From Gammaproteobacteria bacterium (GTDB taxonomy: Bacteria > Pseudomonadota > Gammaproteobacteria > Natronospirales > JAJUFS01): a DNA stretch of 64,000 nucleotides. The notes under the pieces are model-generated. The model searched no databases and was not told where the DNA came from. It was given only the letters and a program-made list of their open reading frames with translations. Positions 38,857 through 44,198 of this stretch are shown in pieces. Position numbers and translations under genes: made by a program. Numbering within the stretch: the first letter of the stretch is position 1; each line of letters starts with the position of its first letter. The stretch covers positions 785 through 64,784 of the forward strand of contig JAJUFS010000002.1 in assembly GCA_029263725.1 (NCBI GenBank). The letters run 5' to 3'.

Positions 38857-40695
38857 CTATTCATTGATCGCCGCCGCCAGTTGCGCTTCCGCGCGCTGCA
38901 TCTGCTGCAGCGTCCACATGCCGGCGTAATGGCCGTCCAGCGCCAGCAGCTCGTCGTGCGTGCCGCGTTCGACCACGCGGCCCTTGTCGAGCACGACGAT
39001 CTCGTGCGCGTGCATGATGGTGGACAGGCGATGCGCGATCACCAGCGTGGTGCGGCCTACCTGGATGCGATCCAGCTCCGCCTGGATGGCCTTCTCCGAG
39101 CGCGAATCCAGCGCCGAGGTCGCCTCGTCGAAGATCAGGATGGCGGGATTCTTGAGCAGCGCGCGCGCAATCGCCACGCGCTGCTTCTCGCCGCCGGAAA
39201 GCTTGAGACCGCGCTCGCCGACCTGCGTCTCGTAGCCATCCGGCAGGCGCGTGATGAAATCGTGGATATGCGCGGCGCGCGCCGCGGCTTCCACTTCCTC
39301 GCGCGTGGCTTCCGGGCGGCCGTACTGGATGTTGTAGAAGATGGTGTCGTTGAACAGCACGGTGTCCTGCGGAACGATGGCGATCGCCCGCCGCAGTGAT
39401 GACTGCGTGACCTCGCGGATGTCCATGCCGTCGATGGTGATGCGCCCGGAATCGACGTCGTAGAAACGGTACAGGAGCCGCGCCAGCGTCGACTTGCCGG
39501 AACCCGAATGCCCCACCACCGCCACCGTGCCGCCGGGCGGAATCTCGATGTCCACCTCATGCAGGATCTGGCGGCGCGGATCGTAGCCGAAGCCGACGTT
39601 CTCGAAGCGTACTCGCGGGCGCGTCACCATGAGCTCCCGCGCCCCGGGCGCGTCCTGCACGTCGAGGTTCTCGTCCAGCAAACCGAACAGCCGCTCCATG
39701 TTGGTGAGCGCCTGCTTCACCTCGCGGTAGACCATGCCGAGCAGGAACAGCGGCGCCGACAGCTGCAGAAGATAGGCGTTCACCAGCACGAGATCGCCGA
39801 CGGTGAGATTGCCGGCGACCACGCCCGCGGCCGCGCGCCACATCATCGCGGTGACACCGGCGGAGACCACCACGGTCTGGCCGACGTCGAGCACGGTGAG
39901 CGTCTTCTGCGCCTTGACGCGCGCATCCTCCAGGTAGCGCAGGCTGTGGTCGTAACGCCGCGCCTCGTGCTCCTCGTTGTTGAAGTACTTCACGGTCTCG
40001 TAGTTGAGCAGCGAATCCACGGCACGCTCGTTGGCGCGCGTGTCCGCCTCCACCGAAGCACGGTAGTAACGCGTGCGCCACTCGGTGACCGCGAAGGTCC
40101 AGGCCGCGTAGGCCATGAGCGTCACCAGCGTGATCAGCGCGAAGACCCAGTCGTAGGCCCACACCAGCACGATGGTGACCAGCAGCACTTCCAGCGCGAT
40201 GGGCAGGATGCTGTAGATGGTCCAGTCGAGGAGATCGGTGATGGCGCTGCCGCCGCGTTCGACATCGCGCGCCACGCCGCCGGTGCGGCGCGCGAGATGG
40301 AACTTCAGGCTGAGCGCGTGCAGGTGGCGAAAGACCTGCAGCGTGACCTGGCGCGAGACGCGCGCCATGACGCGCGCGAACACCACCTGCCGCAGCCCGG
40401 TGAACAGCGTCACGCTCACCCGCGCGGCGCCATAGGCAAGCAGCAGCGCCACCGGCAGCACCAGCAGGTTCGGTTCGACGTTGAGACCATCCACGATGTA
40501 CTTGAGGATGACCGGCACGGTGAGGTTGGCGAGCTTGGACAGCAGGATCAGCGCGAGCGCCAGCAGAATGCGGCCGAGGTAGGGCCGCAGGTAGGGCAGC
40601 AGCGAGCGCATCACGGATATCTCGCTCTGCAGGCGCTCGTCGCGCTTCACGTACAGCGATTCGCCCTGTTGGTTGCCGTTCTGGTCGTTGTTCAT
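38857..40695 (-). CDS. ABC transporter permease/ATP-binding fusion, ABCB Atm1/HMT-like half transporter
   Basis: A six-TM N-terminal domain is followed by an NBD ([40 protein letters not shown]). It resembles Atm1-type exporters overall. Confidence 0.88.
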   Translation of the reverse strand: MNNDQNGNQQGESLYVKRDERLQSEISVMRSLLPYLRPYLGRILLALALILLSKLANLTVPVILKYIVDGLNVEPNLLVLPVALLLAYGAARVSVTLFTGLRQVVFARVMARVSRQVTLQVFRHLHALSLKFHLARRTGGVARDVERGGSAITDLLDWTIYSILPIALEVLLVTIVLVWAYDWVFALITLVTLMAYAAWTFAVTEWRTRYYRASVEADTRANERAVDSLLNYETVKYFNNEEHEARRYDHSLRYLEDARVKAQKTLTVLDVGQTVVVSAGVTAMMWRAAAGVVAGNLTVGDLVLVNAYLLQLSAPLFLLGMVYREVKQALTNMERLFGLLDENLDVQDAPGARELMVTRPRVRFENVGFGYDPRRQILHEVDIEIPPGGTVAVVGHSGSGKSTLARLLYRFYDVDSGRITIDGMDIREVTQSSLRRAIAIVPQDTVLFNDTIFYNIQYGRPEATREEVEAAARAAHIHDFITRLPDGYETQVGERGLKLSGGEKQRVAIARALLKNPAILIFDEATSALDSRSEKAIQAELDRIQVGRTTLVIAHRLSTIMHAHEIVVLDKGRVVERGTHDELLALDGHYAGMWTLQQMQRAEAQLAAAINE

Positions 40696-40778: not shown

Positions 40779-41225
40779 ATGCACGAGGAACTTGCCATCG
40801 GTGAACTCGCCCGCCGCAGCGGCGTGGCCGCCTCCGCGCTGCGCTTCTACGAGGAGCGCGGCCTGATCCATTCGCTGCGCACGGCCTCCGGCCATCGCCG
40901 CTACCCGCGCGCCATGCTCCGCCGTGTCGCCTTCATCGTGTTCGCGCAGCGCGTCGGGCTCACCCTGGAGGAAATCGGCGCGGAGCTTGCGCGCCTGCCG
41001 CGCGATCGCGTGCCGCAGAAGGCCGACTGGCAGCGGCTGTCGGCGAGCTGGCGCCAGCGCATCGATGAACGCATCGCCGAGCTCGAGCAGCTGCGCGACT
41101 CGCTGGGCGAATGCATAGGCTGCGGCTGCCTGTCGATGAAGCAGTGCCGGCTGGTCAATCCCGGCGATCGTCTCGGCGAGCGGGCTTCAGGGCCGGTGCG
41201 CTGGCTGCAAGGGCGTCGCTCATGA
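40779..41225 (+). CDS. soxR: redox-sensitive MerR-family activator SoxR
   Basis: It has the MerR HTH (IGELARRSGVAASALRFYEERGLI) and the diagnostic 2Fe-2S cluster motif CIGCGCLSMKQC. Confidence 0.95.
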   Translation: MHEELAIGELARRSGVAASALRFYEERGLIHSLRTASGHRRYPRAMLRRVAFIVFAQRVGLTLEEIGAELARLPRDRVPQKADWQRLSASWRQRIDERIAELEQLRDSLGECIGCGCLSMKQCRLVNPGDRLGERASGPVRWLQGRRS

Positions 41226-41891
41226 ACCGTCGGGCTCCAGGCATTCCGGCCCCTGGTGACGGATGCTGTTGACGTAGCTGGACACGGCGCGCAGTGACAG
41301 TTCGCCCGGCCAGGGCCGCAGCAAGGCCTGCAGCGCCTGCCGGTCGGCATCGGGATCCAGCCACGTGCGGCAACCATCGGCATCGAGAATCACCGGCATG
41401 CGGTGATGTATCGGCCGCAGCTGTTCGGATGGCTCGGCGGTGAGCGTGAGAAAGTTCTCTTCCGGCCCGCCCTCCCTGTCATTGCCCACCGTCCACAATC
41501 CGGCAAGGGCAAACGCCGCGAAGCCGGGCATGTGTATCGCCCAGGCCTGCTTGCCGCCGTCCACCGGCTGCCATTCGTACCAGCCGCTCACCGGCACGAG
41601 ACAACGCTGCGCCTTCGCGGCGTGCTGGAACATGCGCTTCTCGAACACCGTCTCGCTGCGCGCGTTGATCTGCGCCTGGCGCGGATCCTTCATCCAGCGC
41701 GGCGCGAATCCCCAGCGCATGCCGCTTTCAATGAACTCGCCTTCTATCAGCCGCAGCACCGGCGCGGTCTGCTGCGGCGAGATGTTGTAGCGAGGCCGCG
41801 CATAGGCCGCGGCGATGGGCGCATCATCGAAGTCAGCGGGATACAGGTTGGCGCCTTCCTCAGGCGCGACGATGAAATAGCGTCCGGGCAT
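41220..41891 (-). CDS. SOS-response-associated peptidase (SRAP/YedK/HMCES) family protein with Pro in place of the catalytic Cys2
   Basis: The N-terminus is MPGRYF..., where the family has MCGRF/Y. Other family blocks are intact: YNISPQQ, RWGFAPRW, INARSETV, CLVPVSGWYEW, LAGLW, PIHHRMPVIL. The start is at ATG 41891, placed by homology. Confidence 0.85.
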   Translation of the reverse strand: MPGRYFIVAPEEGANLYPADFDDAPIAAAYARPRYNISPQQTAPVLRLIEGEFIESGMRWGFAPRWMKDPRQAQINARSETVFEKRMFQHAAKAQRCLVPVSGWYEWQPVDGGKQAWAIHMPGFAAFALAGLWTVGNDREGGPEENFLTLTAEPSEQLRPIHHRMPVILDADGCRTWLDPDADRQALQALLRPWPGELSLRAVSSYVNSIRHQGPECLEPDGS

Positions 41892-42035
41892 TGCATGCTC
41901 TCGCAGTCGAATGGCGGGATGGTAACGCGGCCCGCACCGCCATTGCATTGCAGGCAATGAATGAAATGATCCTCCGCAAATGAAGACGGCGGACGCCGCT
42001 TTCGCGACGCCCGCCGTCTGTCGCTCGCGCGAGCC

Positions 42036-42134
42036 TCAGCGGCTCTGCTGTCCCTGACGCGGCGAGGCCTGCTTGCCTCCCTGCTGTTGCTGCTGCTTGC
42101 CACCCTTCTGCTGCTGCTGCTTGTTGCCAGGCAT
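42036..42134 (-). CDS. hypothetical 32-aa Gln/Lys/Gly-rich peptide
   Basis: The peptide is MPGNKQQQQKGGKQQQQQGGKQASPRQGQQSR. A GAGGAA RBS lies 7 nt upstream of ATG 42134. It is low-complexity, so coding status is uncertain. Confidence 0.4.
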   Translation of the reverse strand: MPGNKQQQQKGGKQQQQQGGKQASPRQGQQSR

Positions 42135-42210: not shown

Positions 42211-42966
42211 CTACGAGTACCGTGCGACCTGGTCTGTTCGGTTTCGCATAGAGGCATTGTCAAAGCGCGCGAAGCGCTCTTCCTCGCGGCGGATGGCGGC
42301 ATAGCACTCGCAGGCCATTTCCGTGAGCCGCGAGCGGTCCAGCACCACGATGCAGCCGCGGCCGTAATCGACGATGCCGAGCCGCTGCAGCTTCTTCGCC
42401 GCCACCGTCACGCCTTCGCGGCGCACGCCGAGATTGCCGGCAATGCGCTCCTGGGTGGCGAGAATGCGGCTGCCCGGAATGCGGTCCAGCACCTGCAACA
42501 GCCAGCGGCACAGCTGCTGCTCCACGGAGTGATGCTGGTTGCAGGCCGCGCCCTGCGCGACCTGCGCCAGCAGCGTCTGCGCGTAGCGCAACAGGCAGTG
42601 GCGCACGCGCTCGTCGCGCTCCATGGCTTCCGCCAGCAGCGCCGACTTGAGGCGAAAGGCCGCGCCGCCGATCTGCACGCTCGCCTGCCAGGGCATGCCA
42701 CCGCCGCCCAGCACGCGCGAGGCCCCCAGCAGGCCCTCGCTGCCGACCATGGCGACTTCGATGGTCGCGCCGTCATCCAGCAGCATGCCCAGCGAAATCA
42801 CCGCGCCGGCGGGAAACCACACGCCGCTGTGTTCCTCGTCGGGCGCATGCAGCAGCTCGCCGGCTTCCAGTTCGACGGCCTCGAGGCAAGGTTCAAGGCG
42901 GGCAAGCTCGGCGGCAGGCAGCATCGCCAGCAGCTGGTTGTGGAACAGCGGGGCATGTGCGGTCAT
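42211..42966 (-). CDS. Crp/Fnr family transcriptional regulator (paralogue of 16814-17515)
   Basis: NQLLAMLP..., VWFPAGAVISL and GSEGLLG mark the N-terminal domain; the C-terminal HTH is TQERIAGNLGVRREGVTVAAKKLQRLGIV. The start was chosen at MTAHAPLF (ATG 42966). Confidence 0.85.
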   Translation of the reverse strand: MTAHAPLFHNQLLAMLPAAELARLEPCLEAVELEAGELLHAPDEEHSGVWFPAGAVISLGMLLDDGATIEVAMVGSEGLLGASRVLGGGGMPWQASVQIGGAAFRLKSALLAEAMERDERVRHCLLRYAQTLLAQVAQGAACNQHHSVEQQLCRWLLQVLDRIPGSRILATQERIAGNLGVRREGVTVAAKKLQRLGIVDYGRGCIVVLDRSRLTEMACECYAAIRREEERFARFDNASMRNRTDQVARYS

Positions 42967-43085
42967 GTCGCGGCTTATGCCCCCTGCTCTTGCCGGGCCG
43001 CAACCGGGCATGCGCCGCAGGTGGATGCCCCTTGGGAAACGATTCACGGCGTAGAATGGGAAGGCATCCACACCACGAGCCGATC

Positions 43086-43721
43086 ATGCCGCGCATCCTG
43101 CTTTTTCTTCTGTTCATCGCCCTGCCCGTGCATGCCGCCGAGACGCTGCACGGCGAGGTGGTGGCGATCGCCGATGGCGACACGCTGACGCTGCTCACTG
43201 CGGACAAGGTCCGGCATCGCATCCGCCTCGACCAGATTGACACTCCCGAGAAAGGCCAGGCCTTCGGCAACCGCACCCGCCAGGCGCTGGCGGCGCGCGT
43301 CTTCCGCCGCGAAGTCACCGTGGTGGTGCATGACACCGACCGCTATGGCCGGCGGGTGGGCGAGGTGCTGGTGAATGGCGAGTCGGTGAACCGCGCGCTG
43401 GTGCTGGACGGCTTTGCCTGGGCGTACCGGCGTTACCTGCGCGACCAGGATTATCTCGATCTCGAACGGCAGGCCCGCGAAGCAAGGCGCGGCCTGTGGT
43501 CGGAAGCGGATCCGGTACCGCCCTGGGAATGGCGGCGCGGCGTGCGGGAGCGCGCCCCGGGAAAGCCGGAAGAAGCGGGATTCGAATGCGCGCCGCTGAA
43601 GCGTTGCGCGGCCATGCAGTCCTGCGAGGAAGCGCTGTTCCAGCTGCGCGAGTGCGGCGCCGGCCTCATCGATGGCGACGGCGACGGGATTCCCTGCGAG
43701 CGGCTCTGCGCGGGCGGATGA
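43086..43721 (+). CDS. secreted thermonuclease (SNase) family nuclease with C-terminal Excalibur Ca-binding domain
   Basis: After the signal peptide MPRILLFLLFIALPVHA comes the SNase core (VVAIADGDTLTL...IRLDQIDTPEKGQAFG...DRYGRRVGEV) and a C-terminal CAAMQSCEEA...DGDGDGIPCERLC (Excalibur). Confidence 0.88.
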   Translation: MPRILLFLLFIALPVHAAETLHGEVVAIADGDTLTLLTADKVRHRIRLDQIDTPEKGQAFGNRTRQALAARVFRREVTVVVHDTDRYGRRVGEVLVNGESVNRALVLDGFAWAYRRYLRDQDYLDLERQAREARRGLWSEADPVPPWEWRRGVRERAPGKPEEAGFECAPLKRCAAMQSCEEALFQLRECGAGLIDGDGDGIPCERLCAGG

Positions 43722-44198
43722 TCAGGCGGTGAGCAGCCGGCGCAGCTGCTTGAGACCCTCGTGCAGGCGGTCGCGGTCCGCGCCCGGCATGGTGGCGAGC
43801 TGTTCGCCCAGCCGGCGGACGTGCTCGGGGAACACCTGGCGGAACACCTGGTCGCCCTTGTCGGTGAGCACCACGCGAATGCAGCGCCGGTCCTCGGAGC
43901 AGGCGCGCCGCTGCACCAGGCCCTTCTGCTCCAGGCGGTCGACCACGCCGGTGAGCGTGGTCTTGGTGATGAGCGTGTTCTCGCCGATTTCCTTGAAGGT
44001 CATGCCCGGCTGGTTGCCAAGCGTGGCGAGCACATCGAACTCGGGGCTGGTCAGGCCGAAACGCTTGATGTCTGCGGCGCTGAACTCCGAGAACGCCTGG
44101 TAGGCGCGCACCAGCTCGCGGATCACGGCGAGCGCAGGATCACGCGCGCATTCCCTGGTTGGGTCCATGTTTCTTCGATTGTCTGAAATGTCCGACAT
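43722..44198 (-). CDS. MarR family transcriptional regulator
   Basis: It has the winged-HTH pattern (FGLTSPEFDVLATLGNQPGMTFKEIGENTLITKTTLTGVVDRLEQKGLV). Confidence 0.9.
   Translation of the reverse strand: MSDISDNRRNMDPTRECARDPALAVIRELVRAYQAFSEFSAADIKRFGLTSPEFDVLATLGNQPGMTFKEIGENTLITKTTLTGVVDRLEQKGLVQRRACSEDRRCIRVVLTDKGDQVFRQVFPEHVRRLGEQLATMPGADRDRLHEGLKQLRRLLTA

Follow-up and report, generated by a model that had tools for sequence, protein, structure and literature searches.

Proteins of the SRAP family, whose closest described members here are Escherichia coli YedK and human HMCES, are recognized by an N-terminal Cys that makes a thiazolidine cross-link and so shields abasic (AP) sites in single-stranded DNA (ssDNA). 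The paper that founded the family called this Cys "absolutely conserved" and placed it invariably at residue 2 (PMC3765255). The AP sugar is opened by Glu105 and His160 in YedK, and Cys2 contributes its alpha-amine to a Schiff base at C1' and its thiol to closure of the thiazolidine (PMC9436759); the resulting ring sits in a pocket of Trp103, Ile147, Thr149, and Pro164, and Asp161 contacts O4' of the AP site through a water (PMC6821365). We analyzed a SRAP gene (41220..41891, minus strand) in a 64,000-nucleotide stretch of the Gammaproteobacteria contig JAJUFS010000002.1, hereafter the window, in which residue 2 is Pro. As this Pro2 is conserved, has arisen more than once, and is accompanied by changes in the pocket around it, the protein probably cuts or transiently binds damaged ssDNA rather than cross-linking to it.

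SRAP sites without a free thiol, with Glu105 and His160 kept, have been engineered in YedK. The C2A and C2S variants form no DNA-protein cross-link (DPC) and give a borohydride-trappable Schiff base of the N-terminal amine (8D2M) as well as Glu105-dependent AP-lyase products of beta-elimination, with lyase rates of 0.05 for C2A and 0.002 for C2A/E105Q (PMC9436759). Blocking Cys2 with formaldehyde, which turns it into a five-membered thiazolidine with a thioproline-like secondary amine, abolishes the DPC, and strand cleavage by the blocked protein needs both Glu105 and His160 (PMC9436759). The N-terminal ring of this blocked YedK is close to proline, and both it and the C2A and C2S variants resemble the window protein in these respects. 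They are laboratory constructs with an unadapted pocket, however, whereas the replacement in the window is natural, lies under purifying selection, and is accompanied by pocket changes.

The gene is a complete coding sequence of 223 amino acids plus stop. Its first codons (minus strand, 41891..41874) read ATG CCC GGA CGC TAT TTC, giving a protein that starts MPGRYF, and the minus-strand letters confirm the statement of the first-pass annotation that CCC lies two changes away from TGY. The codons that matter below are as follows.

41889..41891, minus strand: start codon ATG, Met1, to which position 1 of the Pfam profile is aligned
41886..41888, minus strand: codon 2, CCC, Pro2, aligned with the SRAP nucleophile Cys2
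41664..41666, minus strand: Asn76 codon (YedK Asn75), invariant in 23/23 Pro2 proteins
41574..41576, minus strand: Glu106 codon (YedK Glu105, role per PMC9436759), invariant in all Pro2 proteins
41445..41447, minus strand: Thr149 codon (YedK Ile147), a clade-specific change, Thr in 13/13 of the clade and 0/430 Cys2 proteins
41406..41408, minus strand: His162 codon (YedK His160), invariant in Pro2 proteins
41403..41405, minus strand: His163 codon (YedK Asp161), His in 23/23 Pro2 versus 59/430 Cys2 proteins
41222..41220, minus strand: stop codon, end of the 223-amino-acid open reading frame (ORF)

The gene product is a true SRAP protein with Pro in the Cys2 column. It matched Pfam PF02586 (SRAP) at E=4e-55 and 187 bits, against a cut-off of 27.1, over profile positions 1-213 of 214; these were aligned to residues 23-231 of the longer, TTG-started ORF, which places profile position 1 on the Met of Met-Pro. 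In a profile search of the PDB, a profile of the clade to which the window protein belongs aligned with E. coli YedK over the full length (1-220 on 1-220, E=1e-25), pairing M1-P2-G3-R4 with M1-C2-G3-R4, INARSET with INARVET (Asn75), GWYEW with GWFEW (Glu105), and IHHRMP with IHDRRP (His160). An AlphaFold2 model of the window protein built with 80 sequences had a predicted local distance difference test score (pLDDT) of 96.1 and a predicted template modeling score of 0.93. Its top 21 Foldseek matches in the PDB were all SRAP structures, the best being the SRAP domain of HMCES (6oeb, E=1e-20, template modeling [TM] score 0.82) and the YedK cross-link (6nua, TM score 0.81); the Schiff-base complex of YedK C2A (8d2m) was also among them. 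Arg4, Pro39, Asn76, Arg78, Glu106, Trp107, Thr151, His162, and Arg164 were kept in 23/23 Pro2 proteins, and Thr81 of the window protein, an ssDNA anchor in YedK (Thr80), was retained too. The counterparts of these residues in YedK bind ssDNA, anchor the AP-site phosphate, and catalyze (PMC6821365, PMC9436759), and the ssDNA anchors shared by the 2 proteins (YedK/window numbering) are Arg4, Pro40/39, Arg77/78, Thr80/81, Trp106/107, Thr149/151, and Arg162/164. The first-pass annotation had called the product a SRAP/YedK homologue with an N-terminal block equivalent to MCGR and the remaining catalytic residues in place, and these alignments uphold it on each count, with Pro in the Cys2 column and Asn76, Glu106, and His162 standing for Asn75, Glu105, and His160. 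What sets the window protein apart from YedK and HMCES is the change of the nucleophile Cys2 to Pro, together with Ile147 to Thr and Asp161 to His. Cys at residue 2, the hallmark of the family, is found in 430/430 Cys-type relatives and is absent here; the protein is SRAP by sequence and fold while lacking the defining Cys2, and on that comparison "Pro2 variant of SRAP" is the proper name for it and "YedK orthologue" is not.

We searched 5.8 billion protein clusters and identified relatives beginning MPGRYF(I), with 1 at 99% identity and 14 others at 63-74%, including a truncated 153-amino-acid fragment and a gene call with 4 extra residues ahead of the motif. The next-best matches start MCGRY and are at most 52% identical. 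The 90%-identity cluster of the window protein has 15 members on approximately 80 contigs, all reading MPGRYFIVAPE. Databases label the Pro2 proteins simply "SOS response-associated peptidase," and our literature search found no mention of a natural SRAP protein with an N-terminal Pro. DNA was compared for 16 loci from independent assemblies (NCBI metagenome-assembled genomes [MAGs] of uncultured Gammaproteobacteria, JGI, ENA, and Logan). More than 15 assemblies of uncultured Gammaproteobacteria, each independent of the others, carry Pro2, and codon 2 is CCC, CCT, CCA, or CCG across the loci of the clade, i.e., all 4 Pro codons are in use. In pairwise Nei-Gojobori comparisons of 14 clade genes, the ratio of nonsynonymous to synonymous substitution (dN/dS) reached at most 0.33 (median 0.18) at a dS of approximately 0.9-1.5, and the SRAP gene is thus under long-lasting purifying selection with Pro2 in place. 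A sequencing or assembly error is ruled out by the recurrence of Pro2 in more than 15 assemblies and by the 4 synonymous Pro codons, which bears out the earlier claim that the codon was no trivial base error, and a decaying pseudogene is ruled out by the same recurrence and codon diversity together with the dN/dS of 0.18 and the intact predicted fold (pLDDT 96).

A functional Pro2 protein would also be lacking if translation began farther upstream and buried the Pro internally; in-frame upstream starts are present in the window, and its own Shine-Dalgarno-like element is weak. The features in question are the following.

41898..41902, minus strand: GAGAG, a weak Shine-Dalgarno-like element 6 nt 5' of the ATG
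41892..41957, minus strand: in-frame 5' extension of 22 codons (TTG 41957, ATG 41948), most likely untranslated
41986..41999, minus strand: terminator-like hairpin followed by a T-run, which ends the transcript of an upstream small ORF and lies 5' of the alternative starts

Comparison between loci argues against such a start. The Met-Pro start codon is ATG in the 16 loci except for GTG in L002, and nearly all related loci have a GGAG-type (GGAG/GGAGG) ribosome-binding site 6-10 nt 5' of it. The in-frame sequence 5' of Met-Pro is not conserved among relatives, and at 5 loci of the clade (L001, L162, L167, L170, and L171) no ATG, GTG, or TTG follows the last in-frame stop ahead of Met-Pro; a Planctomycetes locus (L174) likewise offers no alternative start before its upstream in-frame stop. 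In-frame GC content at third codon positions (GC3) is 0.55 in the extension against 0.81 in the gene, where each block of 22 codons has 0.68-0.95. Further, the extension lies outside the Pfam alignment, which begins at the Met, and the hairpin sequence (41999..41986) recurs in the closest relative (L168). An upstream start at ATG 41948 or TTG 41957 is unlikely given the unconserved extension, the loci without such a start, the drop in GC3, and the hairpin, so that the start at Met-Pro, for which the first-pass annotation had named ATG 41948 as the alternative, is supported. With the same N-terminus in more than 15 assemblies and on approximately 80 contigs, the explanations by error, pseudogene, or internal Pro are very improbable and effectively excluded. 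Methionine aminopeptidase removes Met before a small residue 2, Pro included, and Met-Pro-Gly is a good substrate. Met1 is expected to be removed by this enzyme, which would leave Pro as the mature N-terminus. A scan for sigma-70 promoters upstream of the SRAP gene gave no consensus match. Separately, a TAnnnT hexamer (TACCAT, TATCAT, TACACT, TACAAT, or TATACT) that may be a -10 promoter element was seen approximately 30-35 nt 5' of the ATG in the window (approximately 41920-41925) and at L001, L002, L082, L162, L164, L166-L168, L170, and L173.

The Pro2 variants of the window's type form a clade, as the first-pass annotation had suggested checking. In a neighbor-joining analysis of 117 relatives, with column 2 left out of the bootstrap alignment, these 14 distinct proteins were monophyletic in 99/100 bootstraps and nested among Cys2 proteins, and the other 103 proteins all had Cys at residue 2. 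A further search, over 1.84 billion 50%-identity representatives, yielded 23,099 SRAP clusters at E<=1e-3, among which P0013 alone stands for the window's clade. The best 150 of the 23,099 representatives contained 2 more proteins starting with Pro at residue 2, P0151 (VPGRFAQ, GTG start) and P0177 (MPGRLIQ). The latter belongs to a second Pro2 clade (clade B; P0177 and P0401-P0407) of 8 full-length proteins from Planctomycetes MAGs, which read MPGRL[IV]QDP and HHRMG, are 67-85% identical to one another, and have their nearest Cys2 relatives at 46-51% identity. The clade B gene at L174:8001-8699 starts ATG CCC behind a GGAG box. Each of the 2 Pro2 clades was monophyletic in 60/60 bootstraps, and they were sister to each other in 0/60; the singletons P0151 and P0276 (MPQRFAQ), both with Pro2 and HHRMG, were placed beside MCARFTQ proteins. 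Because the 2 clades are each monophyletic yet never sisters, and with the singletons added, Cys changed to Pro at residue 2 at least twice, probably 3 or 4 times.

In a pool of 454 full-length SRAP proteins, which is enriched for Pro2 through the use of Pro2 queries in the searches, residue 2 was Cys in 430, Pro in 23, and Val in 1. None of the 454 had Arg, Ser, Gly, Tyr, Phe, or Trp there, each of which is one substitution from TGY. That the two-step change to Pro recurs while the single-step replacements of Cys are absent points to selection for Pro specifically and not to loss of function. The Val2 protein (P0349, MVARLTQ) is a singleton with canonical HNRMP; it, P0151, and P0276 come from short metagenome contigs, and each is the sole member of its own 90% cluster.

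Co-variation with residue 2 was assessed by an unbiased scan over all alignment columns, comparing 430 Cys2 with 23 Pro2 proteins. The columns that stood out fall precisely at the YedK pocket and O4'-contact positions described above and are given here by window numbering.

Position 166 (YedK Pro164): Pro 429, Ala 1, and Gly 0 in Cys2 proteins; Gly in clade B, P0151, and P0276 (HHRMG); Pro in the window's clade
Position 149 (YedK Ile147): Ile 378, Leu 25, Val 24, and Thr 0 in Cys2 proteins; Thr in 13/13 of the window's clade
Position 163 (YedK Asp161): His in 59/430 Cys2 proteins; His in 23/23 Pro2 proteins

On this alignment, each Pro2 lineage has altered an otherwise near-invariant pocket residue around residue 2, as one would predict for a site that had to fit and tune a pyrrolidine ring. 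Position 163 is Asp, Glu, or Thr in the Cys2 proteins sister to clade B and to the singletons. For the window's clade, His is already found there in some of its Cys2 sisters, so that here it may have been a permissive background instead of an adaptation that came later. Trp104 (YedK Trp103) is common to both Pro2 clades and occurs in only 54/430 Cys2 proteins. Neither the second clade nor the pocket co-variation had been foreseen in the first-pass annotation, and both strengthen the case. A further candidate, A154P, considered as a change common to Pro2 proteins, failed the larger alignment scan.

Without a 1,2-aminothiol a thiazolidine cross-link is chemically impossible, and the imine or lyase chemistry that the first-pass annotation proposed as a possibility in its place is strongly supported by the published work on YedK. 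In the mechanism we propose, Arg4, Pro39, Arg78, Thr81, Trp107, Thr151, and Arg164 would bind ssDNA and flip the AP site into the active site, where Glu106 and His162 would open the deoxyribose ring. In the absence of the thiol the stable thiazolidine cross-link of YedK and HMCES could not close; the secondary amine of Pro2 would most likely attack C1' to give an iminium ion, which, as in Fpg and Nei, would drive beta-elimination and cut the strand 3' of the lesion. Should Pro2 not attack, the enzyme-opened aldehyde would eliminate by itself. In either case, the prediction is that AP sites in ssDNA are cut or, at most, hold a short-lived adduct, and that they are not shielded for long. We infer this course from Met removal through iminium formation to the lyase outcome, and with it the biological role. 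AP-site cleavage in ssDNA, via a Pro2 iminium or via enzyme-catalyzed ring opening and elimination, is in our estimate the most likely activity, with a probability of roughly 0.55.

The serious rival is a transient shield that does not cleave, in which the protein would hold the AP site non-covalently or as a freely reversible iminium and form no long-lived DPC. All DNA-anchoring residues are kept, YedK binds the tetrahydrofuran abasic analogue tightly without covalent chemistry (dissociation constant 0.17 uM; PMC6821365), a reversible shield would spare the cell both toxic DPCs and fork breakage, and the remodeled pocket (Thr149, Gly166, and His163) could suppress elimination. Yet Glu106 and His162 are invariant, although loss of either counterpart improves binding by YedK (PMC6821365), and because Glu106 is kept even though E105A makes YedK bind DNA 18-fold better (PMC6821365, Table 3), catalysis is suggested rather than mere binding. 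Every Cys-less or Cys-blocked YedK that has been engineered and assayed gave strand cleavage (PMC9436759). It is general knowledge from organocatalysis and from Fpg/Nei that iminium ions of secondary amines beta-eliminate more readily than neutral imines. On these grounds we judge a non-cleaving shield unlikely, while it deserves to be taken seriously.

N-terminal Pro is used for catalysis in 2 other protein groups. It is the established Schiff-base nucleophile of Fpg, as cited in PMC9436759 (its reference 26), and mycobacterial Nei2, which acts on ssDNA, is described in PMC11323726 as a dedicated ssDNA AP beta-lyase. The predicted likeness of the window protein to Fpg/Nei comprises the Met-Pro start, the Pro amine as a nucleophile on C1', and a nearby Glu as acid/base; in contrast to Fpg/Nei, it has no helix-two-turn-helix motif or zinc finger, and Pfam and Foldseek give SRAP only. 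The resemblance would thus be one of predicted mechanism only, i.e., convergence and not membership. In the tautomerase superfamily (4-oxalocrotonate tautomerase and MIF), an N-terminal Pro bared by Met removal likewise provides a catalytic amine, but these enzymes have a beta-alpha-beta fold, act on small-molecule substrates, and do not bind DNA; neither Pfam nor Foldseek gave a match of the window protein to the tautomerase fold. A further rival is a changed substrate or role, either another DNA end or lesion (3'-PUA [a phospho-alpha,beta-unsaturated aldehyde], 5'-deoxyribose phosphate, oxidized abasic sites, or formyl bases) or a non-DNA carbonyl, as for the tautomerase Pro1 enzymes. YedK already reacts with 3'-PUA ends (PMC9436759), and the pocket residues of the Pro2 proteins are unlike those of canonical SRAP proteins. 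More generally, N-terminal Pro is known to serve varied carbonyl chemistry across the tautomerase superfamily. Conservation nevertheless extends over the entire surface that binds ssDNA and over the phosphate anchor (Arg78, Thr151, and Arg164), which argues for the same kind of DNA substrate, and gene context showed no link to any metabolic pathway; we consider a changed substrate improbable.

Several points weigh against AP-site cleavage, the chief one being physiological. Cutting AP sites in ssDNA at forks would make double-strand breaks, the very outcome SRAP proteins are thought to prevent, and the lyase activity of YedK C2A is slow, 0.05 versus 19.7 min-1 for wild-type cross-linking (PMC9436759). 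The argument also takes Met removal for granted, as well as the pKa of Pro2. The neighborhood of the gene is not conserved and gives no hint of function, nor of when a lyase would help, and no LexA box of the form CTG-N10-CAG was found within 200 nt upstream at 14 loci, this motif being of E. coli type and possibly not that of the hosts.

The Pro2 finding itself is solid at the level of sequence and unexpected for specialists, the chemistry and biological role of the Pro2 SRAP proteins being predictions. Natural, conserved, and independently arisen Pro2 lineages with matching pocket changes suggest that evolution explored a second chemistry on the SRAP scaffold. Tentatively, and at slightly less than even odds, the Pro2 SRAP proteins would constitute a recurrently evolved and unrecognized class in which a suicide AP-site shield has been turned into a turnover ssDNA AP lyase by N-terminal-Pro iminium catalysis, convergent with Fpg/Nei and enabled by remodeling of the pocket (YedK Pro164 to Gly or Ile147 to Thr, plus Asp161 to His). 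If so, one scaffold would decide between protecting and cutting abasic ssDNA through a single residue and its pocket, and the pocket substitutions would predict mutations that turn YedK or HMCES into an efficient lyase. If they are AP lyases, these proteins would add a new family to the enzymes that process AP sites in ssDNA, give a clear example of convergence on N-terminal Pro, and offer a natural experiment on why most cells shield such lesions and do not cut them.

The SRAP gene stands alone, with a small Lys/Gln/Gly-rich ORF and its terminator upstream and a convergent soxR gene downstream. The latter (40779-41225, plus strand) encodes a SoxR redox-sensing regulator (TIGR01950, 196 bits) with the CIGCGCLSMKQC cluster motif, and its 3' end overlaps that of the SRAP gene by 6 bp. 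It is divergent from a gene for an ATM1-type ABC transporter (38857..40695, minus strand), which SoxR more plausibly regulates. The arrangement of MarR, Crp-like, small ORF, SRAP, and convergent SoxR genes recurs in a single relative, the closest one (L168, 74% identity); elsewhere in the clade the neighbors are unrelated and include peptidase M4, hemerythrin, cupredoxin, HipA, and others. The neighbors of the Pro2 variants, which the first-pass annotation had wished to see compared, are thus mostly unrelated between loci, and a conserved operon was rejected because they vary. No SOS or translesion-synthesis genes adjoined the SRAP gene in the loci examined, PADLOC gave no match linking it to a defense system, no member of the clade was found in IMG/VR as a sign of phage origin, and the window holds no second SRAP gene.

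Some minor features of these neighborhoods were also recorded. The small ORF (42036-42134, minus strand, and L168:1712-1819) encodes a Lys/Gln/Gly-rich peptide of 32-35 amino acids (MPGNKQQQQKGGKQQQQQGGKQASPRQGQQSR) that had no family match; it is kept in the window and the closest relative, between the Crp-like regulator and SRAP genes, and is followed by the hairpin at 41999..41986. Farther upstream lie a Crp-like ORF (42211-43071, minus strand), an ORF for a staphylococcal nuclease (SNase)-like protein with an apparent signal sequence (42957-43721, plus strand), which nominally overlaps it, and a MarR regulator gene (43722..44198, minus strand); the real starts of the SNase-like and Crp-like genes probably make them shorter than the mechanical ORFs. 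At L161, L166, and L167 (P0010, P0014, and P0013), the SRAP gene is near genes for large secreted M4 (thermolysin-like) peptidases, and in 2 of these 3 loci it is also near a GAF/PAS sensor gene, synteny being limited to that sub-branch. In clade B, the upstream neighbor of the SRAP gene of L174, on the opposite strand, is an AbiEii/DUF6036 gene. In the SRAP protein of L173 (P0012), an insertion of 13 residues (KQRTPDAKQRPAS) directly follows the GWYEWQP strand, within the hairpin that corresponds to the YedK beta-thumb.

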